From a virus (taxonomy: Duplodnaviria; Caudoviricetes), in the IMG/VR virus record IMGVR_UViG_3300047409_000596, positions 1-62,251 of that record: a stretch of 62,251 nt of DNA. One strand, 5' to 3'. The notes beneath the pieces are model-generated. The model saw only the letters and a program-made list of their open reading frames with translations. It did no database searches and was not told the DNA's origin. Positions 554 through 46,939 of this stretch are shown here, piece by piece; position 1 is the first letter of the stretch; each line of letters begins with the position of its first letter. A program made the position numbers and the translations under genes.

Positions 554-1543
554 TCAGGGTCGCGTCGTGTTGCCGATCAGCAGCCGCCCCTGTGCCAGGG
601 CTGTCTCATCGCCCGCGTCCGTCCGCCAGACGTCGAAATAATAGGAACCCACCGCCTGCTTCGTGTTGGTGCTCGACAGGTCGATGGTCCAGACACCGTT
701 GACCGCGTCAACCAGTGTAATCCCGGACCCGGACGTCTTGGTCACGATGACGGCGGGCGGGTCGGACCCCTGATCTTTCTTGAGCCAGAACCCGAGCGTC
801 CAGCCGGACACGCCGCTGGCGGGGGCCTCGTCCATCGTCAGGGTGATCTCGACGGCCTCGCCGTAGACGCAGCCGAGGGGTTGAAGAAGGCTACTCACGT
901 CGAGGCTCCCCACCAGGGACAGGGCGATTTCGACCCGGCCGGTCAAGAGCAGGGCGGTTTCGTCGTGGCCAGCCAGGGCAAGGGCGGTTTCGACACGGCC
1001 GGCCAGAGACAGCTTGCGGACCGGAATGACAACGACGGGCGGGGCCGGAACCTGAACGCTGTACAGCCAGCCGCCAGTGCCTCGCCCCAGCAATACGTCC
1101 CGCCAGGGTGCTTCGCCGCGGGTGCGTGCCAGCCAGGGAAGAGAATCAACCGCGGGGGGCACAACCGGAACGGTCCCCGGGTTCCAGACGAGGGGACGCG
1201 CTTCGCCCGGAGCGTCTGCCGGAACGGGACGAAGGACCCTTCGCCAGGACAGCTGCTCGGCGGCCGTAACGCCGCCCGCGCCCGGGTTCCAGCGCGACGG
1301 CGTTACGGCCGCTTCCGGTTGTGCCGCCGGAACCGCTGGCCGGCGTTGCCAGGGCAGGCCCGTGTCGACGGGGAACGGGGGCAGCCGTTTCGCGGCTGGG
1401 GGTTCTCCCGGTAGTTCCGCCGCAACCTGTTGCCGCTTGAGCCACGGCAGCTGCTCGACGGGCGGTGGCACCGCGGCCGTCATCCCGGTGTGCCAGCGCG
1501 AACGCGGGCGGACGACGATAGTCGTTTGGCGGAGGATCGCCAC
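554..1543 (-). CDS. Virion/tail protein, Pro-rich repeats plus BppU-like C-terminal domain
   Basis: Repeated LPWxxR units; C-terminal ITLVDAVNGVWTIDL...YYFDVWRTD resembles baseplate-upper adaptor domains. Confidence 0.55.
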   Translation of the reverse strand: MAILRQTTIVVRPRSRWHTGMTAAVPPPVEQLPWLKRQQVAAELPGEPPAAKRLPPFPVDTGLPWQRRPAVPAAQPEAAVTPSRWNPGAGGVTAAEQLSWRRVLRPVPADAPGEARPLVWNPGTVPVVPPAVDSLPWLARTRGEAPWRDVLLGRGTGGWLYSVQVPAPPVVVIPVRKLSLAGRVETALALAGHDETALLLTGRVEIALSLVGSLDVSSLLQPLGCVYGEAVEITLTMDEAPASGVSGWTLGFWLKKDQGSDPPAVIVTKTSGSGITLVDAVNGVWTIDLSSTNTKQAVGSYYFDVWRTDAGDETALAQGRLLIGNTTRP

Positions 1544-1546
1544 GGC

Positions 1547-2017
1547 TTACGACCCGCTTTCCTCGAACTCGATCCCGCCGGAAAACGCACACGTCCCCGT
1601 TACGGTCGAAAGCAGTTCAAAGGTAAACTGCTCGTTGAGCCCGATCACGGGCGGGTTGGGGAAGCTATAGTCTAATCCGGCGTAGTTGTGAACACCCTGG
1701 GCCATGAGTACGACCGCCGTCCCCGAGGTCGTGGATGGCGTGGTGTCATTGACGCGCGCCGTCGCCGCTGCCGCTGCGTCCCCCGGGTCGAGAGGAACCG
1801 GCGTCGGTGCCGTGCCGCCTAAACCGTTGGTCACAGTGGCCGGCAGATACCGGCAGCGCAGCCGTAGGCTCTGCGCCGTCTGGAGCGTGGTACTGGTCGC
1901 CCCCAGCCAAACGCGTTTGATCCGGCACGTCTTGCCCGTCGACCCCTTCACAACGGCCAGATCCTGCGCCGCCGAAATCGTGACGTTCTCGAACGATACC
2001 GTATAAGCCCGGGCCAT
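1547..2017 (-). CDS. Virion structural protein (beta-rich)
   Basis: GAGG RBS, coding-like composition, in tail operon. Confidence 0.65.
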   Translation of the reverse strand: MARAYTVSFENVTISAAQDLAVVKGSTGKTCRIKRVWLGATSTTLQTAQSLRLRCRYLPATVTNGLGGTAPTPVPLDPGDAAAAATARVNDTTPSTTSGTAVVLMAQGVHNYAGLDYSFPNPPVIGLNEQFTFELLSTVTGTCAFSGGIEFEESGS

Positions 2018-2026
2018 GATTACCTC

Positions 2027-3433
2027 CTACACGAGTAGTGTTTCGTTGATGTACTGATCACCGGGGCGAAAGAGAACGGCAACCGGCGGGGCGGCAATCT
2101 GCCCGTCCACCAGCAGCCCCATCGCCGGCAGCGAGCTGATCAGGTCGTTACTCCAGTCCGTGGTAGCATTGGCGCGGGCGTAGTACAGATTGCCGCCCCC
2201 CGGCATGGCGGCGCGGAGGTTGGCGTCGGCACCCGTTCCGATGTCCAGGCGCTGGGGGCCACTGGTGACGGCGCCGGAGTAAGTCGCCACGATGCGGTAC
2301 TGCGTCCCGGCCAGGAGGGTGTAGGGCGTGCCGCCCGACGTCAGGCAGCCCAGGCGGTTGGCCGCGGCCCCGTACAGGATGTCTGTGGAAACGTTGCTCG
2401 CCGTCCCGGAAGGTCCATTGCTGCCCGTCCAGATTTCCAGGCCCGAGATGCTGGCGCTGGCAACCGTCCAGACGGCGCCGAAGATTGGTACATTGGCGAC
2501 CAGACCACTCGTTGTGATGACCAGGCCGCGGCGGTTGGTATCACTGGCGGGCGCCGTCCCGCCCGTGATCGGGTTCCCGAAAACGGTGGAGTCAGAGAAC
2601 GTCAGCACCATGTTGCCAACGACCGAGCCGGCTACAGAATTACCGGAGGCAAACCCGCCCGTGGTTGTGACCGAAAGCCACCGGCATAGGTGCTGACTGC
2701 CCGACGTCACGTCCATGAACGCCAGGCGAGTAGCGATGGTCGCGAAATCGGTAGCGCCGCCGTCCGCATCCCCGACGATGAAGTAGACACGAGCCAGGGC
2801 GGAAAGAACACTCGTCCAGCCCGTCGACTTGTTCCAGCCGGTCGTTGACGAGGGATTATACGTTTTGGACTCGGTCAGGGTAGCCGTGTCGGGCGACGCC
2901 GCCCCCGCACTCGCCTCGGGACGCAACTCCAGATTCAGGTCGTCGACATTGGCGGCCGTGCCGGTGAAAGACGAGATGTAAAAGTATACATTGTTGATCG
3001 TTTTACCACCGGGAGGGCACAGGTAGCGGACCGACAGAGCATTGCCGGACGTGCCCGCAACGTAGTTGTTGTTGAGGGCCAGCGTACCCACCGAACCGAG
3101 GGCCGCGTCACGGAGAATCTGAAAGGGGAAGACGTCGGCGCTGCTGAAGAGCGCCGCGACCCGCTCGCAGTCCCGCTCCCGCTTGAGCAGCCGCTCCGCC
3201 AGCCGCCTTTGCCGCCCCCGCGTGGGCTCCGCCTCCACCCGCTCCTTCCAGTGCCGCCACTTCCTTACAGCCTCTCGCTGGTCCTGGGACGGCCTCCACT
3301 CGTCGCGGGCCTCGCCCTTACCCAGGTACGGACGCAGCGCCTTGTCCCTGCGGTCGAGCACAAAGGGAGCGGACAACTCTCCCGTGGGGAGCCACCAGTT
3401 GCGAATCAGGTGGTAGCGGCCAGTAAAGGGCAC
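2027..3433 (-). CDS. Tail-associated protein
   Basis: 468-aa ORF with Thr/Gly/Ser-rich beta content, in tail operon. Confidence 0.6.
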   Translation of the reverse strand: MPFTGRYHLIRNWWLPTGELSAPFVLDRRDKALRPYLGKGEARDEWRPSQDQREAVRKWRHWKERVEAEPTRGRQRRLAERLLKRERDCERVAALFSSADVFPFQILRDAALGSVGTLALNNNYVAGTSGNALSVRYLCPPGGKTINNVYFYISSFTGTAANVDDLNLELRPEASAGAASPDTATLTESKTYNPSSTTGWNKSTGWTSVLSALARVYFIVGDADGGATDFATIATRLAFMDVTSGSQHLCRWLSVTTTGGFASGNSVAGSVVGNMVLTFSDSTVFGNPITGGTAPASDTNRRGLVITTSGLVANVPIFGAVWTVASASISGLEIWTGSNGPSGTASNVSTDILYGAAANRLGCLTSGGTPYTLLAGTQYRIVATYSGAVTSGPQRLDIGTGADANLRAAMPGGGNLYYARANATTDWSNDLISSLPAMGLLVDGQIAAPPVAVLFRPGDQYINETLLV

Positions 3434-4653: not shown

Positions 4654-5541
4654 TCACTTCACGAACAAAACCCGGGCGCCAGAAGCCCCCAGAATGATCC
4701 GGTTGACCGCCGACGAATAGACGCACCCACCGGCCACGTTGGCGGGCAAGGTCGCGTTGATGTCTGTCACCGTCTTGTCCGTTTCGATCTTGGTCAACAG
4801 TGCATTGGCACGGCCGATATAAATACGCCCGTCCGCATCGCCGCACGCCTGGTTGTTGACATTCATCACGTTCGTAAAACCCTGTGCTGGACCGGCCCCC
4901 GTCGTGTTGCCGGCAGCCCCGGTCCCCAGGAGGACTTCCATGCGCTGCTGGCGGCGCAGAAACCGGAGCAGAATAGCCCCGCTCTGTCCCACCGACGCCA
5001 GGCCCGTGGCCGTGACGAGCAGGGAATCCGTGTCCCTGTCCACGACCCCCAGGCCAACCGGATTATGAACACTGCTGATATCGTAATAGTAGCTGGCCGT
5101 CACCGTGGGCACGTCGAAGGCGTAAATCTTCTTGGCAACATTGCCCTGGTTGCAAAGAAGCAACCGATTTACGTTGGCCGGGTCGAAAAGCATCGATCGC
5201 CACAGGCCCGTCTGTCCATCGAAATTGTTGACCGTCCCAAGCAGGGTGGCCGCAGGAGAGGCCACGGGGATGGTGTAAATCTGCCCGTTGTCCTGCAAGA
5301 CGTAGAGGGTCAGGTCATCCGGGGAAAGGCAGATCGCGGTGGGGGACGTCAGTCCCGTCACCGGCCAGGAGCCGCCAGAGGCTACCCCGGTGGCCACCGT
5401 GAACTGATAGACCTTACCGGCGCTGTTGGTGCAGTAAGCGAACGTCCCGGTCGAATCAATGCAGACGCCCGCCGTGGTACCGGAGCCGGCATTCACCTGG
5501 GTATTGAAGTCAATCGTCCCCGCGATGGCGCTGGGCATCAC
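4654..5541 (-). CDS. Beta-propeller protein (YncE/NHL-like), candidate receptor-binding protein
   Basis: Repeated blades (GVCIDSTGTFAYCT, PTAICLSPDDLTLYV, PVGLGVVD). Confidence 0.65.
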   Translation of the reverse strand: MMPSAIAGTIDFNTQVNAGSGTTAGVCIDSTGTFAYCTNSAGKVYQFTVATGVASGGSWPVTGLTSPTAICLSPDDLTLYVLQDNGQIYTIPVASPAATLLGTVNNFDGQTGLWRSMLFDPANVNRLLLCNQGNVAKKIYAFDVPTVTASYYYDISSVHNPVGLGVVDRDTDSLLVTATGLASVGQSGAILLRFLRRQQRMEVLLGTGAAGNTTGAGPAQGFTNVMNVNNQACGDADGRIYIGRANALLTKIETDKTVTDINATLPANVAGGCVYSSAVNRIILGASGARVLFVK

Positions 5542-7355
5542 GTCACCGCCTGACTGCAGTTCAGCAACCAGTTGTACAGAGGGCAGCCGTCAATCGACAC
5601 TTCCGGGTCGCTGTCCCTGATATTGCCGCGAGCCGGATGAGAAAAGCTCCCTGCGTTATTGGAGCCGGCCGGGTTCATGCCCCAGCCGTAGTGCAGCACG
5701 AACGTGGACGGCGTCCCGGTGGGTGCCCCCGACAGGCCAACGGTCAGGTCCACCCCCGAGGCGGCAACGGCCACGGACGTCACCGTGACCGCGGCGCCGC
5801 TGTCGTCGAGGAACGTGAAGCCGCACACCCCCGTCGGGGAGACGAACGCCACGGTGGGCAGGCTGGTATAGCCCGTCCCCGCCGCCGTGACGGCGGTCGA
5901 GGTGATCGTGCCGTTGGCGTCCATCGTCGGGGTCGCGGTAGCGCCCGAGCCGGCCCCGCCCGAGAACGTGACCGTGGTTCCCGCGGGATAGGCCACCCCC
6001 CCGGCGGTCACGACGAGGGAGCTCACTCCCCAGGTAATCGTAAACGTGGGAACCCCGGCGCCGACTCCGCTCGTACTGCCCTGACTCACCGGGTTGGAGG
6101 GCAAAACCGTGTAAGTCCCTGCCGTCTGGACGCTGACCGTGGTGATGACACCGGCCGATACGCCCGTCACCAGCAGGACCACCGCCTGGGTGAACGTGCC
6201 TCCCGTGAGCGTCACTGTGTCGTTGACGGCGTACCCGGACGTCCCCCCGGCGACAACGACTGCCGAAACGGCCCCCAGTTTCGAGGCTGCGGTGGCCCCC
6301 GACCCCACAGGAACCGTGTTGGCGTCCAGTACCAGCGTCTTGTCGATCACCAGCGGCGGTGCGGGGACGTTGAGGTTGACCGTGATGGTCGAGCCCGACA
6401 GCGTGGCCTGTCGGATGTGCAGGGGAAACCAGTTTCCCTTGCCGAACAGGGTGCGGTACGCGGCCTTGGCGATCATGGCCCCATGCCAGCGCTGACTGCC
6501 GGGGGCCTGATGGATGCCGTCGCTGCAATACTGGTAGAGATACTGGGGGCCGGTCAGGAACAGCACGCGCCGGTTGGCCTGCCACGCCTGAATTTGCTGG
6601 ACGTCCACCGGCACCACGACCAGCGCTTGCCAGGCCGGCTGATAATACTCCTGCTGTGAAAAGAACGCCAGGACGGGCACCTGTTGCCCCGTGATGGCCT
6701 GGATGTCCTGCTGGAAGTCGATCTGCCACTGAGGAAGATCGGTGACATACGTGGCAGAAAAGACGGCGGCGTCCGTATAACCATGCAGGATCAAAAGATA
6801 GACGCGGTGGGGGATACCGCGCTGCCGGGCGTAATTGTAGCCGGCGGTGACCTGGGACAGGCCATTGCGGTAAGGCTGCGTGCCCTTCTTCATGAGGGCG
6901 TAGGCCGTGCCATCAATTCCACAGTTGGACACCAGGATCGTCTTGCCCCCGGCCCGGCGGGACAGTTCGCCGGCAAACGAGGACGCAATCGTTTCGCCAT
7001 GTCCCGCCGTTCCAGAAACGGACCAGTACCGATCGTCGATCTCACAAAGCGGCACGAACGACGTGATAGGCGGATCGACCGCGGCTTCCGTCCCTGGCAA
7101 GGGCGAAAGGCCGAGGCGCACGCCCTGGCTGGGCATCAGGTGTCGGAGGGATCGCGGGTAGGTCGTGACCGGCTCGGGGTCAGGGTAATTCTGGTAGGTG
7201 TAGGTGCCGTTGCTGTTGCTCTGCCCCAGTACCAAAAACTGGTACAGGGTCGGGTCGTAGCCACTTTTGCCCGCCCGCCGTCCGCGAGGGGCGCGCGGGC
7301 TGGGGCGGCGCAAGACCGGGGCATTACGACGGGGATGATCGAGGCCGGCGGTCAC
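5538..7355 (-). CDS. Tail protein with SGNH/sialate O-acetylesterase-like domain and Gly/Thr-rich fibre repeats
   Basis: GQSN catalytic-Ser motif, DGIH (DxxH) motif, repeated V-x-V-x-x-x-G-x-G-Y units. Confidence 0.7.
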   Translation of the reverse strand: MTAGLDHPRRNAPVLRRPSPRAPRGRRAGKSGYDPTLYQFLVLGQSNSNGTYTYQNYPDPEPVTTYPRSLRHLMPSQGVRLGLSPLPGTEAAVDPPITSFVPLCEIDDRYWSVSGTAGHGETIASSFAGELSRRAGGKTILVSNCGIDGTAYALMKKGTQPYRNGLSQVTAGYNYARQRGIPHRVYLLILHGYTDAAVFSATYVTDLPQWQIDFQQDIQAITGQQVPVLAFFSQQEYYQPAWQALVVVPVDVQQIQAWQANRRVLFLTGPQYLYQYCSDGIHQAPGSQRWHGAMIAKAAYRTLFGKGNWFPLHIRQATLSGSTITVNLNVPAPPLVIDKTLVLDANTVPVGSGATAASKLGAVSAVVVAGGTSGYAVNDTVTLTGGTFTQAVVLLVTGVSAGVITTVSVQTAGTYTVLPSNPVSQGSTSGVGAGVPTFTITWGVSSLVVTAGGVAYPAGTTVTFSGGAGSGATATPTMDANGTITSTAVTAAGTGYTSLPTVAFVSPTGVCGFTFLDDSGAAVTVTSVAVAASGVDLTVGLSGAPTGTPSTFVLHYGWGMNPAGSNNAGSFSHPARGNIRDSDPEVSIDGCPLYNWLLNCSQAVT

Positions 7356-7777: not shown

Positions 7778-8320
7778 TTATTTGAAGGCGGCACCCTGGA
7801 CTTCTAGCCACGGTCGCAGCAACACGAGGTCGGCGCCGGCCAGTTGCGGGGTCGTCAGTCCGTTACCGACGTGGCCCGCCAGTAGATAGCGGAAGCCGGC
7901 CAGCGCCTGATAGTCGAAGGTGTCGGCGGGCGGGCCGCCCCCGCCTCCTGTCGTCGTGGCACTCGCCGCCGTGGTAAATGCCGACGAGCCGTCCACGTTG
8001 AACGCCTGGATGCGATACCAGTATTTCGTCCCCGCTGTCAGGCCCGTATCTTGATACGCCAGCGCCGTCGGAGCGATCGTCGGTGCGATCGTGGCCCAGG
8101 TTCCGGGTGAGCCCGCCGAGTCGGGCGCCCGCTGGAGCAGGTAGCCTGTTTGTGTGCCCGGCGAGGTCCACGAGGCGTCGATCTCGGTGTCGGACGCCGC
8201 CACGACGGCGAAATTGCCGGGCGTGCCGGGCGGCGCGGGCGGGGGCGGTGGCGGACCGGCCCCGCTTCCGATCCCCAGCCCGGACAACCCCGACAGTCCG
8301 GACAACCCCGACAGGCTCAT
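7778..8320 (-). CDS. Fibronectin type III domain protein
   Basis: P..P..F.V.A.SDTEI..SW...GYLLQR...YQDTGLTAGTKYWYRIQAFN..GSS; N-terminal (SGL)x4. Confidence 0.85.
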   Translation of the reverse strand: MSLSGLSGLSGLSGLGIGSGAGPPPPPPAPPGTPGNFAVVAASDTEIDASWTSPGTQTGYLLQRAPDSAGSPGTWATIAPTIAPTALAYQDTGLTAGTKYWYRIQAFNVDGSSAFTTAASATTTGGGGGPPADTFDYQALAGFRYLLAGHVGNGLTTPQLAGADLVLLRPWLEVQGAAFK

Positions 8321-8422: not shown

Positions 8423-9118
8423 TTACCCGGCGCGGCCCCGTTCGGGCAAACGGGCGCGTTCGGCACGCAGCTGCTCCCTGGCAGGGTCGTGTTCGCCAGC
8501 AGGGCCGACAAACAGCGCCCGCGGCCGGGTCGGAAAGCGCGGGGCCGGTCCGTACCACCAGCAGGCCAGCGTCTTGCGCTGATAACCCGGCGGACAGGTC
8601 AGCGGCCTTGGAACGCCGTGATAGGAGACGTCGGACGTCTCGAACACGACCAGCCGGCCGGGAGCGGGGTGGATATGCACGACGGGGCCGGTTCGCTCAG
8701 CGTCCCAGAACTCCAGGGCGCCGCCCCATTCGGCCGGCCAGTCGTCGAGGAAGAGTACGGCGTTGAGGCGGCGGGACAGGCCACAACCCGGATGGACGTC
8801 AGCGTCCAAATGGAGATCGAGGAAACCGCCCCGGCCCATGTCATGCATGCCACCGCCCCAGAGGTTCATGTCCGGGAGCAGTGGCGGGGTGAACAGGTGG
8901 TCGAGGCGCAATACCAGCATCCGGCGCAGCAAGTCTTTCACGGCCTCGGGGAACATCACCCATTCATTGCAGGTGCGTTTGCGCTCCAGGGGTGTGTCAT
9001 AGCGTGCCCCCCAGCCGGGCCAGTGCTCATCGGGCCAGACGGCGGCGGCGCGGGCACAGAGGACAGGTTCCCAGCCGTCCTCGATCGCGTGCCGGAAGGG
9101 TTCCGCGTACAGCTGCAT
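8423..9118 (-). CDS. 2OG-Fe(II) oxygenase (prolyl-hydroxylase-like)
   Basis: GGGMH..GRGGFLDLHLD (HxD), WGGALEFW, SYHG, RKT motifs. Confidence 0.85.
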   Translation of the reverse strand: MQLYAEPFRHAIEDGWEPVLCARAAAVWPDEHWPGWGARYDTPLERKRTCNEWVMFPEAVKDLLRRMLVLRLDHLFTPPLLPDMNLWGGGMHDMGRGGFLDLHLDADVHPGCGLSRRLNAVLFLDDWPAEWGGALEFWDAERTGPVVHIHPAPGRLVVFETSDVSYHGVPRPLTCPPGYQRKTLACWWYGPAPRFPTRPRALFVGPAGEHDPAREQLRAERARLPERGRAG

Positions 9119-9120
9119 GG

Positions 9121-9705
9121 TCAACTCCTGCGTGCCAGAATTTCGGCCCCCAGCCAGGCGGGGGCCTCGAAGTTCCACGTCCCGCCCGTGTCGTTCACAA
9201 GGGGAACCACCTTGCACAGCCGCAGGTGCCGGGTTGCCACGGCCCACCAGCCGCGGTCCGGAGCGAACAGTTCGCGCAGTGCGTCCGTGGTGAACCGCCA
9301 GTAATCGCCGGGATAGCCATGGACAGGGAACGTCTGCGGGACGTGGACGTAGAGCCACGCGCCCGGACGAAGCACCAGGGCCAGCTGGTCGGCTACCTCC
9401 CACGGCCGGCGGCAGTGTTCCAGGACGTCGACGGCGATTGCGGCATCGAAGTGGGCGCGGGGGAAGCGGCCGGACAGCTGGTGAGCGTCGCAGACAATAC
9501 CCACACCTTCGCCGTCCAGAAGGTCAACGCTCCACCAGTCGGCAAGGGAATTGGCTGTTAGGATCTTCTCACGATGATGCTTCGGCGGATTCCCGTTCCA
9601 GGCGCGCGTTCCCAATTCCAGGACGCTCAGCGCCGGCCCTTCTGCGAGCCGTTCCAGGAACATCGCCAGACAGTCCGGCTCATCAAACATCGTTGGTGAT
9701 GACAT
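9121..9705 (-). CDS. Class I SAM-dependent methyltransferase
   Basis: VLELGT, DAH, VLEH..RPW, LRPG, PVHGYPGDYWRFT. Confidence 0.85.
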   Translation of the reverse strand: MSSPTMFDEPDCLAMFLERLAEGPALSVLELGTRAWNGNPPKHHREKILTANSLADWWSVDLLDGEGVGIVCDAHQLSGRFPRAHFDAAIAVDVLEHCRRPWEVADQLALVLRPGAWLYVHVPQTFPVHGYPGDYWRFTTDALRELFAPDRGWWAVATRHLRLCKVVPLVNDTGGTWNFEAPAWLGAEILARRS

Positions 9706-10231
9706 CGAAGTAGTATCTGCACTCGTGGGCGGCGTTCGGGAACAACTCCATGATTTGCTGATCGGTCGCCCAGCCGATCAGCTCCTTCCACACGGCGAAC
9801 GCCTCGCCGGGAATAAACTCCGTGCGCAGGTGCCGTAGCCGCTTCTTCTGACCGGCCCACCAGTCGGCAATGAAGTCGACGCACCAATGCCGGATCTGCG
9901 TGGGCGGGACGGTGTGAAAGTGCCCCGAGCACATCGCCATCGAGGACAGCCAGTGCGGTGTTCGGATCTCGACCCGGGCGCCGACCCGGCAGACGCGGGC
10001 AATCTCGTGCAAGAGGTGCGAGTAGGCGCGGACGTGTTCCAGCGTGTGGCTGGTGTAGACCTCATCCGCGCTGTCGTCGGGGAAGGGCAACGGGTCGCTC
10101 TCAAAGTTGCAGCGCACCTGGACTTCGGGCGCGTCGAGGTAGTCAACGTTGACAAACCCTTCACCCCGCGGCCGTCTGCCGCCCCCGAGTTCGATCTTCG
10201 GCGCCGCTCCAATCGGTTCGCTCGTGTTCAT
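9683..10231 (-). CDS. Class I SAM-dependent methyltransferase
   Basis: IELGGG...GFVNVD, LPFPDDSADEVYTSHTLEH, EIARVC. Confidence 0.85.
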   Translation of the reverse strand: MNTSEPIGAAPKIELGGGRRPRGEGFVNVDYLDAPEVQVRCNFESDPLPFPDDSADEVYTSHTLEHVRAYSHLLHEIARVCRVGARVEIRTPHWLSSMAMCSGHFHTVPPTQIRHWCVDFIADWWAGQKKRLRHLRTEFIPGEAFAVWKELIGWATDQQIMELFPNAAHECRYYFDVITNDV

Positions 10232-11267
10232 GCTCTCGCTTCCAAGCCTCATAACGGGGCAATACAATCCCACGCAGATAGCCCATTGAGTACAGGTCGA
10301 GGGTCGGCACGACGGACTCGTGAAACAGGCACCCCGCCTCGTCCGCTCCAAAGTGCAGCCCCGGGTAACTCTCCGTCCCCCACCATACCGGATCCACCCG
10401 GCGCCAGTCGCGCCGGAACAGTTCCACGTTCCGGGCCCAGTAGAACGTCCCCGAATAATGCCAACTGCTGTCCGATCCCGCAAACCCGCGGCCCACCTTC
10501 TTGAAGGTGCCGGCCAGAGGAAAACGTGCAAGCGTGCGTTCGACCAATGGCCAGTAGTCCAGGCACGTTTCGTACATCAGGCGCGTCCAGGTGTGAATCG
10601 TCGTGCCGGGGTTGACCGGGCGGGTGACGCCCTTGGCGTGCGCGTAGAAGGTGGCCTCGGACGGATCTTCCGTGCGGACGTGCGACCAGAGCGGCAGAAA
10701 CGTGGCCACCTCCCGGCGGCTGTAGCTGTTGGGCATCACCAGCCAGTCGCTCACCGTGCCGCGGAAGAGGTCTTTCACGGCGTCGGGCGGATCGAGTCCC
10801 GGGCCGGTCGAAATGGCCACGATCCGCTTGCCGTTGAACAGGTCGATTCGTTTCCGCAGCTGCAAGACGTTCCGCTGCCAGGTGCCATTGCCGCTCATCG
10901 GGCAGACGTGGTAGAGCAGGTGTCTTGTCCGAATCATTGGCTGGCGGGGTTTGTCGTCAGGGCGATAGTCGTCGCAAGAGCAGCAGTCGAAGGACGTCTT
11001 GTGGCCGTGCCCCTTGTCGCAGCTGAAGACCTTCAGCTTTTTGGCGCCGCCCCGTCAAGTCGGCGCGGTCCGCATCACGGGGCGGCCGCGTTCGTCCCGG
11101 ACGTCGGCGCCGCGATGGACGCAGGGAAGTTCCCGTTTGGCGGATTTCGGTCCCGCTGACAGAGGGCCGTCCCAGAGCCTGCGATAGGCCGGATCCGACA
11201 GGTAGAGGTAGCAGAGGCGACAGGCAGTGGCGTGGGCCTTCGGGTCCGTATGGCCACAGGGGATCAT
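10161..11267 (-). CDS. Cys-rich domain fused through an in-frame TGA (11057-11055) to a glycosyltransferase-like domain
   Basis: ATG 11267 couples to the upstream stop; the frame stays open across TGA into ORF 10161..10937; FYAHAKGV and HYSGTFYWAR motifs; no RBS before ATG 10937. Confidence 0.65.
11021..11038 (-). promoter_or_regulatory. SECIS-like hairpin downstream of in-frame UGA
   Basis: AGCUGAA-GGUC-UUCAGCU; stem starts 17 nt and loop 24 nt after UGA. Confidence 0.5.
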
Positions 11268-12385
11268 GCGGTGATCCAGAAGGTAATGTTTCCAATGCAG
11301 AACGGCGCGGCGGACAACGCGCCGGTGAACGCCAGGAAGAACGGGTCGCAGCTGCACGCCGGCGAGTCCATCGGCGTGTGGTTAAAGGCGTAGGACGTTC
11401 CCTGGAACAGAAAGCCGCCGCAGCCGTTGCCGGGCGAATTGCAAATCAGGGTCCACTTGCGGCCGTTGTTGTCGAACCCCTCCCAGGCGACGGCGCCCGT
11501 GTTGTAGTTCAGGACAAAATCCGTGATCCCGCAGTTGCCGGTTTCGGCCTGGACGGTGACGTGCAGCGTCGCCGGCACGGGGTTGAAGGGACAGCAAGGG
11601 CTGGTGATCAACTCCCCGTAGCCGGAATAGCCGGATCCGCTGCGTGACGCGCCGGAACCGGAGCCTGATCCACTGCCACTGCCTGAACCGCTGCCGGAGC
11701 CCGATCCGCTGCCACTCCCAGAGCCAGAGCCGGAACCTGACCCGGAGCCGCTTCCGCTGCCACTGCCGGAACCTGACCCGCTTCCCGATCCGGAGCCGCT
11801 GCCGGAGCCCGACCCCGATCCACTGCCCGACCCCGAACCGCTCCCGCTGCCGCTTCCCGAGCCCGACCCGCTACCGCTGCCAGAGCCGCCACTTGCCCCC
11901 GAGCCGGACGCGCCCGACACGCCCGATCCGCTCTGCCCGCTGGCGCCGCTGGCGCCGCTGGCGCCGGAACCGCTGTCGCCGCTCGCCCCACTGCCACTGA
12001 CGCCGTAGCCCGAACCGCTCCCGTAGCCCGAGGGCAGAACGTCCTCGGGGCAGCAGGCGGCCGCGTAGACCTTCTTGCCGTCCGACGCCCTGCCGACCAG
12101 CAGCGAGGCGATAATGCCCTGGTCCGCCGTGCAGCACTCGGCGTTTCCGTACAACTTCTTGCCGTCGACTGCCTTGCCGACCAACAGGCCAAGATGCAGG
12201 CCCGGCGCTGCCGTGACGAAGCCGCGGCAGGCGAGGCCCGACACGCCCGATCCGGAGTCATACCCGTAGCCCGAACCGGAATGCACCGGATCGGCCCGGC
12301 ACAACCCGGCGTAGACCTTCTTCCCGTCGACGGCACGGCCCGCCAGGCAAGAGAGGAATCGCTGGGTCTGTACGGGTGCCGCCAC
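11264..12385 (-). CDS. Cys-rich tail protein with long Gly-Ser repeat
   Basis: Three L(V/A)G(R/K)AxDGKK(V/L)Y repeats, a (GS)n tract and a Cys-rich C-terminal domain. Confidence 0.75.
11620..12030 (-). repeat. Coding Gly-Ser repeat tract
   Basis: Roughly 40 consecutive GS dipeptides with varied synonymous codons, flanked by SGA/SGY variants. Confidence 0.9.
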
Positions 12386-12397
12386 ACGCGCCGTCCC

Positions 12398-12946
12398 TCA
12401 TTGGTTGGCGTCTCTCCACCAACACTCTTCGCCGGGAATCCACACGAGCGTGACCGGGTCGAAGGTCATTTCGCGGGCCGGGTAAAAGCCTTCGGGCGAC
12501 TGTTCGAGGCTGAGGATCTGGATGAACCGCATGATGGGGTATGACCAGAAGGCCACGGCGTTGCCCTGTGCCGTCACCATCGCCAGCGGGTAGCTCTCCA
12601 TGTTCCGCGGGGCCTCGGTTCCCGTCATGGAGATGGCGGGCAAGTTCGAGTCCCCGACCATGCCGTCGGCCGGCACGAAGGGCACGGCGCCGTCGTCGAT
12701 GACCGCCTCTTTCCAGAGATGATAGGTCGGCGGGATCAGCCCTTCGGGGCGCTCCTTGAGACGCACCGTGATCGGCTTGGGGCTGTTCTCCAGCGGCACG
12801 GAAAGGGCCGTGCCGCCCGGCCCACTCGTCTGGTCGGCGCCGCCCCCGCCGGCGGCCTGCTGACGCAAGTCCTCGACTTCGGCCAGCAGGTCGTTCAGCG
12901 CCTCGGCCTGTTCGCGGTTCAGGGTGCCAGGTCGAAAAGGTTTCAT
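12398..12946 (-). CDS. Tail protein
   Basis: ATGA coupling; position after the hub-like gene. Confidence 0.6.
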   Translation of the reverse strand: MKPFRPGTLNREQAEALNDLLAEVEDLRQQAAGGGGADQTSGPGGTALSVPLENSPKPITVRLKERPEGLIPPTYHLWKEAVIDDGAVPFVPADGMVGDSNLPAISMTGTEAPRNMESYPLAMVTAQGNAVAFWSYPIMRFIQILSLEQSPEGFYPAREMTFDPVTLVWIPGEECWWRDANQ

Positions 12947-23446: not shown

Positions 23447-24826
23447 TCACTGCGTAAGAATCACGAAGGGACTCTGCGTAAACGTCCCGTCACTGAGCGT
23501 CACGGGGTTGTTGAGCCAGCTTCGTCCGTCCATGCGGGCGATGAGGCGCCACATCATTTGATTCGTGGTGAACCGAGGGATCTGGCTGGCCTCGATTTGC
23601 AGTTCCATCCGGTCGCCGATGACGTAGAAGGGGAAGCAGAAGCAGCCGATGCAACCCGTGGTTCCCAGGGCAGGCAGCTTGTCGGTGATGAACAGGGGTC
23701 GGCCGAGCAGCTGGGCGGTGAACTTGTTTTGTACCGGGCCGGACTCGGACGGGGGCGCGGGGTTAAGCCAGACCAGCCGGCCGGCGCCGGAGCCCGCCGA
23801 GTTGTCCGTCATCTGAAGCAGTTGCGGCAGAACGCTCGGATGAGCCAGCCAGATCACGTCCTGCCAGTTGAGGTAGTAGACCTTGCTGAGCATCGTGGCG
23901 ATGTCCGCGAAGCGCACACTCGATGCCGCCGCCCGCGTGACCTGAAGCGTGGCCGGCGAATTGAGCACGCCCAGCGGCATGCTGTTGCCGGCGCCGCGGC
24001 CTTGCAAGAAGGCGTAGTCGCTGAACCAGGCCAGCGCCTGCTTGAACAGCTGCGTCAGAAGGGCGTCGAGGGCCACCCCGTTGTCGGCCAGCAGCTGATT
24101 CGACGCCACGCACAGCATGACGAGGTCCCAGGCGGTCAGCTCCATCTGCCGGAACGTCGGTTCGGATTCGCCGATCGTCGACGCTTCAGGCTGCCACTGG
24201 GCGAAGATGCCGCCGAGCTGGGGTGGCGTGCCCGCAGCCTGCGCCGTGGTCACGTCCAGGGTGGGGATCGTCAGAGTCCGCGTCGTCATCGGCATGACGG
24301 TGGCGTACTGGCGAACGATCGCCTCTTCCACCGCGATACGAAGCAGGTTCTGCGAGAACGCGGGCGGGACGATGTAGCCGCCCGTCACGCCGGAGCCCTC
24401 GGCAAGGGCCGCCTTCGTGACGTGGCCCCAGGCGTTCTTGCGCCCCCCTTCGGGGACGTGCATGGCCGGCGACCAGCCGTCCTTTTCCAGTTTGGCGAAG
24501 TCGGGACGCCCCAGGTTCGGATTGGCCCCCTTGGCGACCTCGCACAGCGCCTCGCCCATGCCGACGCCCTTGAACAGGGGGCGCCGACCAGGAAAGAGCG
24601 GATCGTAACCGCCCGGCAAACTGAACTTGCGGTAGCCGGCGCCGTCGTTGCCGGCCACCGCATGGCCGGTCATCAGCGCCATCACCTGCTCGGGCGAGAG
24701 CATGGTGTTCGAGGCGACGCCGGCCTTGTTGGCCGGCGTCTTGAGGGCAGAGATGGCCTTGTCCATCGCGCCCTGACGTTCGATGATCCGATTGACGGCT
24801 TCCGCCAGTTCGGCGATTTGCGACAT
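23447..24826 (-). CDS. Major capsid protein, HK97 fold, with N-terminal delta/scaffold region
   Basis: GGYIVPP, SNQLLAD, PLGVLNS, FTTNQMMWRLIARMDG. Confidence 0.92.
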   Translation of the reverse strand: MSQIAELAEAVNRIIERQGAMDKAISALKTPANKAGVASNTMLSPEQVMALMTGHAVAGNDGAGYRKFSLPGGYDPLFPGRRPLFKGVGMGEALCEVAKGANPNLGRPDFAKLEKDGWSPAMHVPEGGRKNAWGHVTKAALAEGSGVTGGYIVPPAFSQNLLRIAVEEAIVRQYATVMPMTTRTLTIPTLDVTTAQAAGTPPQLGGIFAQWQPEASTIGESEPTFRQMELTAWDLVMLCVASNQLLADNGVALDALLTQLFKQALAWFSDYAFLQGRGAGNSMPLGVLNSPATLQVTRAAASSVRFADIATMLSKVYYLNWQDVIWLAHPSVLPQLLQMTDNSAGSGAGRLVWLNPAPPSESGPVQNKFTAQLLGRPLFITDKLPALGTTGCIGCFCFPFYVIGDRMELQIEASQIPRFTTNQMMWRLIARMDGRSWLNNPVTLSDGTFTQSPFVILTQ

Positions 24827-24907
24827 GGCAACTCTCTTCTCTGATCGGGTGCGGGTTTCCGAGGCCCGCGCCCTGCCCCCTGCTCTGTTCCAGCCCGCCC
24901 GCAAGAG

Positions 24908-36259: not shown

Positions 36260-36852
36260 CGCTCGCTCTCCCCCTCGGCCCGGACGTTGACCGGGATGGC
36301 AGACAGATGTTTCTCCCACCGCTGCTTTACAGCGGCGCTCTGTGAAGGTACACGCTGACGATTCGGGCGCACCCAATCATTTGCCGCCCGGGAAGTTGCG
36401 ATCCAGCCAGCCGCTCGATAGATGGTTCCGGAATGAACCTCGGTATCTTGATAGGACACGAGGACGCGGATTTTCGGAAGCCGTTTCCGTATGTCCCGAA
36501 CCATCCAGCCAAGCATTCTGCTTGCAGTGTTTTTTGGTGCGTCAGGAGCAATGGCAAGGCGCCTCAGTTCCAGCCAGGTATCCTGTGGCAATAGCCTCGC
36601 TATGGGATTCGTCCAAACTGCCGTCGCATAGAACAGTCCCTTGTACTCTGCCACATAGCAGACAGAATGTACGGTTCGCAAGACGTTGGATTTTTTGAGC
36701 ACCGGGAGACGAGAATGCCACAGGCGGTTGAGATCGCAAGCCGTCTGCACTTCCACGGGACGGAAGAACAATTGGAGCGCCGAGGTCGGACTCGAACCGC
36801 CCCCTTCAGCTTGGAATAGCGGATATGCCACCCGTACACCATCGGCGCCCAT
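36256..36852 (-). CDS. mom: Mom-family (GNAT-fold) DNA adenine-modification enzyme
   Basis: LELRRL...PKNTASR...LVSYQD..HSGTIYRAAGW matches the Mom-like motif set. Confidence 0.75.
   Translation of the reverse strand: MGADGVRVAYPLFQAEGGGSSPTSALQLFFRPVEVQTACDLNRLWHSRLPVLKKSNVLRTVHSVCYVAEYKGLFYATAVWTNPIARLLPQDTWLELRRLAIAPDAPKNTASRMLGWMVRDIRKRLPKIRVLVSYQDTEVHSGTIYRAAGWIATSRAANDWVRPNRQRVPSQSAAVKQRWEKHLSAIPVNVRAEGESER
36773..36848 (-). tRNA. tRNA-Gly(UCC)-like cloverleaf inside the 5' end of the mom-like CDS
   Basis: 76 nt: GCGCCGA/UCGGCGC acceptor, U73, CCA, D-arm, UCC in an 8-nt loop, GGCGG-UUCGAGU-CCG(A)CC T-arm. Confidence 0.75.
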
Positions 36853-41332: not shown

Positions 41333-43030
41333 TCAGTCGGTGAGGTTAACGCACGTCGGCGAAGCCCCGTTGCAGATCACCAGTCCTTCGCGGGCGCGGG
41401 TGAGCATGACGTAGAACAGGCGCACGATCCCGTCATGCCCTTCGGGGTCGATGATCCAGGCTTCCCAGCCCTTCGCCGAGAGGTCCGGGAACACGATCGC
41501 GACGTCTGCCTCGGACCCCTTGAGGGAGTGTCCCGTGCCGATCGTGATAAGCGGCCGGTCGCGCAGGGCCTTGCCGCCGCGCGCCTGTTGTACGCGGGCC
41601 GGATAGGCGTACTTCGACCGCTCCTTGAGCGACACGCGCGACAGCCACCAGCGCAGGGCCAGCGTGCATTCCTTGCGCGAGGAGAAGGGCAAGCGCTCCA
41701 GGTCGTTGAGGATGTCCGGTCGAAAGAGCCCTTCGGCTGTCCCCCAATCAAACGGTCCGGCGTCCCCCTTCAGGAGTTTCAGCTTGCTCTTGGCGCCGTG
41801 CATCAGACAGCCTTTCGTGTCCAGCAGCGAGGCCCAGGCACAGACGTCGCGGCCCTGCCAGAGGCAGGCATCTGCCCCCCACGTCTCGTGATCGGGGCGC
41901 AGGAAGGAAAGCATCCGGTCCACGGGCATGAGGCATGGCGGGTCAGCAGCAGCGCCCGACGTCAGAGGGTTCCAGTCGCCCCGCTTGACCCGCCACGGGT
42001 TGTGGAAAGGCAGGCCGCGCTGACGCAGGAGCGCCTTGAGCGGGCCAAGCATGTAGGAGCAGGCAGCCATCAGCATGACCGACTTGCCTTCCCCGGCGAA
42101 ACGCTCCGCCAAGTCGACCGCCTCGTCGGGCCGCTTGAAGTTGGCCGAGCAGCGCCGCAAGAAGCCTTCCGCGTCACGGGGGTCATACTGCTTGTCTTCG
42201 CGATGATGCAGGCGCTTGACCCAACGACTCGCGACCGCATGGACGGCACGCGGCACGCGGTAGGACTGGCGCAGGTAACGCTTGTCGATGTCCTCGCAGG
42301 GGAAGTCCAGGAACGACTTCGCGTCGGCGCCCGCCCAGAAGTAAATGGCCTGGTCGTCGTCGCCGGCCAGGATAAGCCGCTGCGCGTTCCGTCCCCACTG
42401 CTGAAGGATGTCCGCTTGCAGCTGCGAGGCGTCCTGCGCCTCGTCGAAGAAGATCGCGGCCGGGTTGCCCGGGGCCGACTCGAAATCCGAGAGGCAGGTT
42501 TCCAGGAGGTCGGTGAAGTCGAGGAGTCCGGCATCCTCTTTCCACTTCTCGTAAGCAGCGGCGAAGGGCAAGATACGCGGCGACCACTTCTCACGGGGAA
42601 TACGACGGGCGCGGAGCAAATCCATTTCCGAACGGAGCTTGTCCCCGCGCGTCTCCTTCTTCTGCTCAAAGGGTTCGTCGATCTTGGACTTGCCGGCCTC
42701 TCCGGCGTCGTCGGTCCCCGCGTCCGTCTTCGAGCGCCTGGCGTGCGTCGTGAGCGCGAACGAGGGATGAAGCTTGCCGAACTCGCCTTCGCGGCCCTCC
42801 GTCAGGTCCGGGTAGTCCAGGGCGCGGTAGCAGATCGAATGGAGTGTCCCCACGTTCCGCTTCGGCAGGTCGGGAAGACGCCCCCCGATCTCCGCCGCCG
42901 CCGCCCGGGTGAAGGATGCCACCAGGACATTTCTCGCGCCAAAGTTATACGCGGCACGCTCGACCCAGTTCTTGCAGGTCGTTGTCTTGCCCGTGCCGGG
43001 CGGCCCAAAGAGCAAGTGAACTGTTGCCAT
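41333..43030 (-). CDS. UvrD/Rep-like SF1 helicase
   Basis: GPPGTGKTT, TLHS, DEAQD, GDDDQAIY, QSYR, KGSE, YV.LTRA. Confidence 0.92.
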   Translation of the reverse strand: MATVHLLFGPPGTGKTTTCKNWVERAAYNFGARNVLVASFTRAAAAEIGGRLPDLPKRNVGTLHSICYRALDYPDLTEGREGEFGKLHPSFALTTHARRSKTDAGTDDAGEAGKSKIDEPFEQKKETRGDKLRSEMDLLRARRIPREKWSPRILPFAAAYEKWKEDAGLLDFTDLLETCLSDFESAPGNPAAIFFDEAQDASQLQADILQQWGRNAQRLILAGDDDQAIYFWAGADAKSFLDFPCEDIDKRYLRQSYRVPRAVHAVASRWVKRLHHREDKQYDPRDAEGFLRRCSANFKRPDEAVDLAERFAGEGKSVMLMAACSYMLGPLKALLRQRGLPFHNPWRVKRGDWNPLTSGAAADPPCLMPVDRMLSFLRPDHETWGADACLWQGRDVCAWASLLDTKGCLMHGAKSKLKLLKGDAGPFDWGTAEGLFRPDILNDLERLPFSSRKECTLALRWWLSRVSLKERSKYAYPARVQQARGGKALRDRPLITIGTGHSLKGSEADVAIVFPDLSAKGWEAWIIDPEGHDGIVRLFYVMLTRAREGLVICNGASPTCVNLTD

Positions 43031-46864: not shown

Positions 46865-46939
46865 TACCGGGGGTGGGGATCGAACCCACATCAGCCAGAC
46901 GGCGTCCCGCCTGCGCCTCTCCATTTGGGCTACCCCGGC
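46865..46939 (-). ncRNA. tRNA-like RNA with the anticodon loop closed to a tetraloop
   Basis: GCCGGGG/CCCCGGU acceptor, UAGCCC..UGG..GGC D-arm, CAGGCGG-GACG-CCGUCUG arm, GUGGG-UUCGAUC-CCCAC T-arm. Confidence 0.75.

Follow-up and report, generated by a model that had tools for sequence, protein, structure and literature searches.

A single in-frame UGA at a conserved cysteine position of a tailed-phage gene is a candidate selenocysteine codon

The stretch of DNA analysed here, called the window in the following, is the linear IMG/VR virus record IMGVR_UViG_3300047409_000596 at its full length of 62,251 base pairs (bp), with a CheckV completeness of 74%, and it belongs to a tailed phage from soil. 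The subject is a gene on the minus strand of the window, to which all gene coordinates below refer. It is interrupted by one in-frame UGA, and this codon may be read as selenocysteine (Sec) with the help of a selenocysteine insertion sequence (SECIS). The parts of the gene are the following, with lengths in codons or amino acids (aa):

10161..11267, minus strand: the whole candidate gene, 368 codons if the UGA is decoded, with a Cys/His-rich N-domain and a tentatively DUF8361-like C-domain, as judged from homologs
11058..11267, minus strand: the N-piece, 70 codons up to the UGA, from the open reading frame (ORF) and its similarity to the database protein P0123
11055..11057, minus strand: the in-frame TGA, candidate Sec codon, in the second-Cys column of a CxxC knuckle, from the homolog alignment
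11021..11038, minus strand: a SECIS-like hairpin, AGCUGAA-GGUC-UUCAGCU, with 7 perfect bp
10938..11054, minus strand: the 39 codons that follow the UGA and encode the second half of the Cys-rich module (LKVFSC, GHG, CCSCDDY)
10161..10937, minus strand: the C-domain ORF, 258 codons (258 aa), tentatively DUF8361-like, with its stop TGA at 10163-10161

The ATG at 11267-11265 and the TGA of the upstream ORF, 12385-11264, overlap as ATGA, and the N-piece carries the residues C4, H6, C16, C19, C49 and H51. The 39 codons from 11054 to 10938 are without ATG, GTG or TTG, the first start past the stop being ATG 10937, and the G+C content at third codon positions (GC3) in the same single frame is 0.77 in the N-terminal ORF, 0.85 in the 39 codons and 0.80 in the C-terminal ORF. 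A first-pass annotation, made from the sequence alone, had described an in-frame UGA continuing into ORF 10937-10161, and both coordinates and frame were found to be right. It had also called the 39 codons coding-like, which agrees with their GC3 and with a conservation typical of the family. Its remark that ATG 10937 has no ribosome-binding site stands in so far as there is no Shine-Dalgarno-like motif upstream; judged equally loosely, 8 of 18 other first starts in the window are likewise without such a motif. The gene caller made two products of the gene, P0122 and P0002, the latter from Met124 and 245 aa long.

A second assembly, a Logan contig of 29,134 nucleotides (nt) at depth 12.5 from run X1, shows 0 differences over 9600-12400 and keeps the TGA; run X1 is probably the source sample, so this assembly does not represent independent reads. 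It was also possible to observe a relative, 90-98% identical, in run X2, which covers 10270-10830 and 11106-12400 and not 10831-11105. Its contigs break off at 11106 and 10830, on either side of the TGA and the hairpin, which may be due to low coverage or local strain variation, and because the part between is missing the relative is uninformative on the TGA column. Among the sequencing runs listed as holding the stretch there was none of RNA.

The read-through product has 394 homologs at E<=1e-3, and the best 120 of them are mostly 330-390 aa long and cover 90-95%. Among the 119 homologs listed, the TGA column holds Cys in 97, a gap in 22, which have no N-domain, and another residue in none; Cys is thus present in 97 of the 97 homologs that possess the column. 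The UGA had been placed at a Cys-equivalent position already in the first-pass annotation, which had also suggested a homology search with the read-through product, and both were borne out: about 100 full-length homologs match it, and in these the column is Cys or absent. The consensus of the N-terminal module in the family is PCxHLGxxTGxxxxCxxCxGxxxLKxFxCxxHGxCT…CCxxCxDY, and the TGA column is the second Cys of the CxxC knuckle in this Cys/His-rich module. In the window a 6-residue insertion precedes the knuckle. Residues 72-103, after the stop, have a mean identity to the family of 0.333, which is above 71 of 99 members, and the conservation of the C-domain is above 99 of 101 members. By these comparisons the post-stop sequence shows no decay, and the fused architecture of N-domain and C-domain is the norm among relatives.

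The same interruption was seen in other proteins. A 110-aa read-through query searched against short database proteins found P0123 (69 aa), which is 71% identical to the N-piece of the window, has the same insertion and ends …TRDCGLG-stop, one codon later. A profile of the N-piece (A2) was searched against 1.84 billion representatives and gave 565 hits at E<=1e-3; 140 of the best 150 had not come up in the searches above, and 86 of those have fewer than 170 aa. Of these short proteins, ten end inside the knuckle:

P0140: ends …CGGG
P0145: ends …CGLG
P0178: ends …CGVG
P0196: ends …CGPG
P0214: ends …CGLK
P0216: ends …CADAPG
P0173: ends …KGFG
P0187: ends …KGEG
P0236: ends …SGMG
P0171: ends …KQTVV, without Cys, like the window

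With the window, P0123 and the two loci L082 and L146, which are described below, the knuckle-terminated sequences total about 14; P0123 and the ten further N-pieces are known as protein only, and the stop codon was read in DNA for the other three. Most of the remaining short hits are complete stand-alone N-domains of about 95-120 aa (P0124, P0125 and about 60 more). A stop inside the knuckle is conserved in many lineages. A nonsense mutation of TGC would leave C-x-x-stop, and the recurrent G-x-G-stop in many lineages is therefore unlike random mutation. Since the column is invariantly Cys in 97 of 97 homologs and relatives are interrupted in the same way, the TGA of the window does not seem to be a random lesion. 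No close relative was found when viral_contigs was scanned with P0123, P0003, the N-domain of L082, P0178, P0196, P0214 and P0145, and a search of metagenome_contigs gave one locus, 39% identical.

Two further observations concern the variation in the family. A variant of the second half of the module (…W..C.H…C.C.GCG..CP.Y), present in P0126, P0167 and P0201, is entirely without the CxxC knuckle. P0065 (MTRLKLFQC…) may be a split member, but its 90% cluster includes P0271, which has an intact CPSC.

When 401 Gemmatimonadota genomes were scanned with the family profile, only G001, a metagenome-assembled genome (MAG) of the Gemmatimonadales, matched, and it did so twice, each time with one TGA inside the match. 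The locus L082, on contig C12, reads …PTGRTVECLEPG-TGA-GKKLQSVRLKEYTC… (CLEPG-TGA-GKKL) and leads, without change of frame, into a DUF8361 domain with 47% identity to that of the window; NCBI splits it into P0129 (81 aa) and P0044 (289 aa). The locus L146, on contig C15, reads …PATGRTVECLAPD-TGA-QKKLQSVRLKEYHC… (CLAPD-TGA-QKKL) and continues into Mannosyl_trans3 (5.8e-36) and a methyltransferase-like region. The two are paralogs with different C-terminal enzymes, and the stop is TGA in all three members read as DNA, the window, L082 and L146. In L146 the stretch 1402-3100 forms one frame of N-domain, Mannosyl_trans3 and a FkbM-like methyltransferase region, with more than 540 stop-free codons after the TGA.

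Both contigs, C12 and C15, are phage-like: each has Portal_Mu, and C12 has Phage_Mu_F as well. Downstream of the gene on C12 lie those for a 2-oxoglutarate- and Fe(II)-dependent (2OG-Fe(II)) oxygenase and for a methyltransferase, enzymes of the kinds that the cassette of the window also encodes. That the phages of G001 could be close kin of the window phage was considered and rejected, as the capsid and tail-fibre proteins of the window were not found in G001.

Each of the two loci has a hairpin of its own, UUCAGUC-CGUGC-GACUGAA in L082 and UUCAGUCG-GUC-CGACUGAA in L146, with 7-8 bp and at 17-18 nt past the TGA. Under a null model of synonymous recoding, L082 would have a stem of at least 7 bp with a probability of 0.0008 and L146 with one of 0.0043. 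Between the N-domains of the two paralogs the synonymous divergence (dS) is about 0.78-0.80 and the nonsynonymous divergence (dN) about 0.40 on both sides of the TGA (76 and 30 codons), and of the codons for seven identical residues before the knuckle, 6 are synonymously different. The arms of the hairpin are identical in L082 and L146 and made of rare codons (CTT 5%, CGA 7%, AAA 26%), and the synonymous differences sit in the loop. The hairpins of L082 and L146 are under selection at synonymous sites. Their arms are built from the codons for LQS and RLK, including an insertion, and those of the window from the codons for KLK and FSC, and such an origin from non-corresponding codons implies that the lineages reached a hairpin independently. 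A hairpin in relatives was among the things to look for according to the first-pass annotation, and L082 and L146 do have their own, from different codons and strongly non-random.

The hairpin of the window had been described as a perfect AGCUGAA-GGUC-UUCAGCU with its loop 24 nt after the UGA, and this is what we found at 11038-11021: 7 perfect bp, 23 nt between the UGA and the loop, and a loop that starts at the 24th nt. An equally strict hairpin follows 32 of the 1522 TGA triplets in the window (2.1%), and the minimum free energy (MFE) over 60 nt is equalled in 1.45% of 2,000 recodings. The stem is encoded by the codons for K-L-K-V-F-S-C, of which LKVF is family consensus. In the loose model of bacterial SECIS elements (bSECIS) the loop lies 16-37 nt after the UGA, and the hairpin on the 3' side with a G in its apical loop that this model describes is found in the window, L082 and L146. 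At the loci of Cys-bearing homologs, only 8 of which could be checked, there was no hairpin at the same place.

The MAG with the two relatives also contains genes for Sec decoding. The tRNA-Sec of G001 scores 70.7 bits, where the gathering score is 47, and its SelB scores 289 bits, or 315 when taken together with its neighbour. There is also a fragment of SelA at a contig end (53.7 bits), and a SelD (385 bits) with an in-frame TGA (…SHGAG-U-ACKLG…). The selD gene (L147 1531, contig C119) has the hairpin GGCGCAG-GUC-CUGCGCC at 32-33 nt past the TGA, and it is itself a selenoprotein gene. The apex G-GUC-C is common to selD and L146, and the loop in the window is GGUC. A look for the Sec machinery, as proposed earlier, was thus successful in the MAG of the relatives, where tRNA-Sec, SelB, a SelA fragment and a Sec-containing SelD were present.

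It is probable, to judge from these comparisons, that 11267-10161 is a single gene and that its UGA is decoded as Sec via SelB and tRNA-Sec of the host together with a SECIS. This was also how the UGA was read in the first-pass annotation, and the reading is supported by the Cys column, by the TGA and the hairpins in the relatives and by the Sec genes of G001. We infer that SelB binds the hairpin of the window, that the host of the window phage decodes Sec and that Sec is actually inserted. The hairpin at 11038-11021, in the coding sequence just 3' of the UGA, would act as a SECIS of the bacterial type, and Sec would replace the second Cys of the CxxC knuckle in the Cys/His-rich N-terminal module. 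Failure to insert Sec would release the 70-aa N-piece and success would yield the 368-aa enzyme, so synthesis of the full-length product would depend on the selenium supply and the SelB of the host.

Several observations weigh against decoding as Sec. The window hairpin is real, but it is only mildly beyond chance and weak evidence alone, because KLKVFSC in preferred codons largely produces it: among 20,000 synonymous recodings with the codon usage of the phage a stem of at least 7 bp arises in 8.7% and one of at least 5 bp in 30%, and K-V-F in preferred codons alone yields GAA-GGUC-UUC. The fold of the window has z-scores of -0.82 (81 nt) and +0.15 (50 nt), and L082 and L146 reach only -1.56 and -1.40; shuffle z-scores have little power here, as even the SECIS of selD scores only -1.64. 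The MFE over 50 nt in L082 favours another fold, and the SECIS families of Rfam gave no match in our search, only noise at E>0.1. The spacing from the UGA to the loop varies, being 17-23 nt here and 32-33 nt in selD, and so does that from the first Cys to the stop, which is 3, 4 or 5 residues, or there is no Cys. Where 84 of 119 homologs have the first Cys of the knuckle (position 68), the window has Ala, and it has Lys for the Cys of HGxC (alignment A1). A dN/dS of about 0.5 on both sides in the paralogs, with only 30 codons downstream, amounts to moderate constraint. The TGA has been read in three lineages only, and as TGA is the commonest stop, three out of three would occur by chance with a probability of about 0.4.

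The link to G001 is weak as well. In a sample of 151 Gemmatimonadota genomes SelB is above the cut-off in 119, or in 118 of 149 if the unpublished G058 and G098 are left aside, and as it is so common in the phylum, its presence in G001 speaks for compatibility and is no discriminating test. The phage-like contigs are linked to G001 solely by binning. On the phage record itself, which is 74% complete, neither a tRNA-Sec nor any other Sec gene was found, and Rfam gave no hit there.

An explanation that dispenses with Sec can be that the gene is a conserved split gene, which we regard as unlikely. The UGA would then be a true stop, the 70-aa N-piece and a C-domain started from ATG 10937 or ATG 10898 would be separate proteins, and the hairpin and the 39 codons would be a remnant or be translated from a non-canonical start. 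C-domain-only relatives do exist (the 22 of 119 homologs without an N-domain), and P0003, which is 77% identical, begins at the Met equivalent to ATG 10937. Stand-alone N-domains of about 100 aa are also common, the gene caller made the two proteins P0122 and P0002, and TGA is the usual stop of the phage, all of which would fit with a split. However, domain shuffling would not be expected to break a Cys module halfway, and to do so at one and the same knuckle in about 14 sequences, and the second half of the module is conserved without a canonical start, over 39 codons in the window and 40 codons in L146, where the first canonical start comes 40 codons past the TGA. The GTG that NCBI took as the start in L082 is GTC in L146, and the selection at synonymous sites in the hairpins of L082 and L146 also argues against two separate genes.

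Read-through of the UGA independent of SelB is quite unlikely. A leaky or hairpin-stimulated UGA-C would let a near-cognate tRNA insert Trp, Cys or Arg, giving a little full-length enzyme beside the N-piece, as for the A1 protein of phage Qbeta. UGA-C is a weak termination context in E. coli, the stop in the window is a UGA followed by C, no Sec-competent host would be required, and the conservation on either side of a conserved UGA would be accounted for. Such read-through leaves unexplained why the stop always replaces a Cys and why the apex of the hairpin is that of the selD SECIS in the same genome bin, and the base after the UGA is not conserved, being C in the window and L146 and G in L082.

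An accident, either a recent TGC-to-TGA nonsense mutation in a decaying N-domain or an error of assembly or sequencing, is very improbable: it would take one base change, Cys68 is Ala, and the pre-stop segment with its 6-residue insertion is less conserved than that of most members (only 26 of 97 are lower over 46-70), but many diverged lineages, and two paralogs with a dS of about 0.8, have their stop at the same position, there is no decay past the stop, and the second assembly at depth 12.5 is identical. The recurrence of the position already largely refutes such an accident.

Three other candidates were tried and rejected. A phage with globally recoded stops does not agree with a single in-frame TGA, with TGA as the usual stop, with an intact capsid and tail fibre and with the lack of a UCA anticodon: the stops of 23 high-GC3 ORFs in the window are TGA in 17, TAG in 5 and TAA in 1, and the long structural ORFs, including those of the capsid and tail fibre, are uninterrupted. 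A suppressor tRNA of the phage was rejected as neither of two tRNA-like elements has a UCA anticodon, and a frameshift at an A-rich tract because this tract comes after the stop and is in frame with it. GC3 was also used to screen for further in-frame stops, but what it flagged was mostly antisense frames and gene junctions, and the screen was dropped.

The two tRNA-like elements both lie on the minus strand. In the one at 46865-46939 the T arm is perfect and the acceptor stem has 7 bp, and this element scores 34.5 bits with the Rfam tRNA model (gathering score 29), with lax filters only; its anticodon arm is 19 nt and not 17, and ARAGORN reports it as tRNA-??? with a 2-letter anticodon, 'ac'. 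The other, at 36773-36848, is a second tRNA-??? of ARAGORN with the anticodon 'tc'. Its acceptor stem has 7 bp, its T loop is UUCGAGU, the CCA end is encoded and the anticodon loop, UAUUCCAA, has 8 nt (or 6 nt); against Rfam it gave no hit at E<=0.1.

The N-domain is found at the head of enzymes of different kinds. In other proteins it precedes Mannosyl_trans3, Glyco_transf_34, Glyco_transf_9, GH130 and Methyltransf_24, 11 and 21, and it also heads fusions of the DUF8361 protein with a 2OG-oxygenase or a methyltransferase. For the C-domain of the window, the label 'glycosyltransferase-like' given in the first-pass annotation could not be upheld: no family in Pfam, PHROGs or NCBIfam reached the threshold and a profile search of the PDB sequences gave 0 hits, and it is the N-domain that elsewhere heads true glycosyltransferases. 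In the ESM Atlas the C-domain falls in viral clusters where 34-75% of the members have PF27674, with a feature score of 0.98 and a TM-score by query of 0.69-0.85. PF27674 is DUF8361, a phage domain of unknown function, and the local Pfam copy, in which there were 0 hits, has no model of it. That the C-domain is DUF8361-like is only a lead, from the Atlas cluster labels alone.

The candidate gene stands in a cassette of enzyme genes, in the order Gly-Ser-rich protein, candidate gene, two methyltransferases and 2OG-Fe(II) oxygenase. The genes of the cassette and some other genes of the phage are:

12385-11264, minus strand: Gly-Ser-rich protein, head of the cassette, directly upstream of the candidate gene
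9683..10231, minus strand: S-adenosylmethionine-dependent methyltransferase (Methyltransf_11/23), adjoining the candidate gene
9121..9705, minus strand: second methyltransferase of the cassette
8423..9403, minus strand: 2OG-Fe(II) oxygenase of the cassette
23447-24904, minus strand: HK97-type capsid
5538-7355, minus strand: tail fibre
7778-8320, minus strand: fn3 tail protein
41333-43030, minus strand: helicase

The upstream gene, 11264-12385, encodes a product of 373 aa in which Gly-Ser dipeptides follow one another over about 100 residues and the C-terminal part is rich in Cys; it had no match in Pfam or PHROG. The final 71 nt of the candidate gene (10161-10231) overlap the next methyltransferase gene, from its ATG 10231. 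Homologs end earlier than the protein of the window, so its C-terminal tail is specific to the lineage.

Decoding of Sec is known in bacteria, archaea, eukaryotes and a few eukaryotic viruses. Among bacterial selenoprotein genes, fdhF of E. coli has a SECIS in the coding region that is read by SelB. The gene of the window resembles such genes, for instance selD of G001, in having its UGA at the Cys position of homologs with coding sequence on both sides, and a hairpin at 17-33 nt past the UGA whose small apical loop contains G and U. It differs in being carried by a phage, in belonging to an unnamed family that is not a known redox enzyme and, in the window, in lacking the partner Cys. There is no match to an Rfam model here, and the likeness is one of stem and apex. 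The selenoproteins of eukaryotic viruses, for example the glutathione peroxidase homologs of poxviruses, likewise come from virus genes that lean on the Sec machinery of the host, but they have a eukaryotic SECIS in the 3' untranslated region and are captured host genes of known function, whereas here the signal would be of the bacterial type, within the ORF, and the family is typical of phages.

Two known phage systems are also comparable. The A1 protein of phage Qbeta is made by programmed read-through of UGA by tRNA-Trp, and there too a short and a long product come from one ORF interrupted by UGA; the Qbeta site has no conserved Cys, in contrast to the Cys column of the homologs and the SECIS-like hairpin found here. 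In stop-recoded phages TAG or TGA is reassigned in late genes via suppressor tRNAs, with many in-frame stops per late gene. The likeness is an in-frame stop within a gene of the late, structural region, and the difference is that they have many stops while the window has one and TGA ends 17 of its 23 ORFs. The first-pass annotation knew of no characterised selenoprotein from a phage virion operon, and our literature search found no report of a phage selenoprotein. According to the abstract of PMC8310308, a few viruses redefine UGA to specify selenocysteine, and the relevant passages of PMC5029168 do not mention phages. The proposed mechanism is known, and the phage carrier and the protein family are new.

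On balance, we lean towards the view that the gene belongs to an undescribed and widespread family of phage selenoproteins, in which a Cys/His-rich module heads enzymes that modify glycans or proteins (DUF8361, mannosyltransferases and methyltransferases), with Sec in about 1/15 of the lineages, a SECIS built by each lineage and the UGA as a gate. Most ribosomes would release the 70-aa N-piece at this gate, the full-length protein would be made only in selenium-replete, Sec-competent hosts, and modification of the virion or of the host surface would be tied to the selenium status of the host. If true, phages exploit the SelB/SECIS system of their hosts, and the family would be a new one among selenoproteins, in which Sec is part of a knuckle that probably binds metal or is redox-active, and not of a classical oxidoreductase. 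It would also imply that gene callers systematically split such phage genes, as with P0122 and P0002 or P0129 and P0044, which is a caution against calling in-frame TGAs in viral metagenome contigs pseudogenes. The gene would then offer a simple test system for a virus enzyme whose output depends on the selenium of its host.

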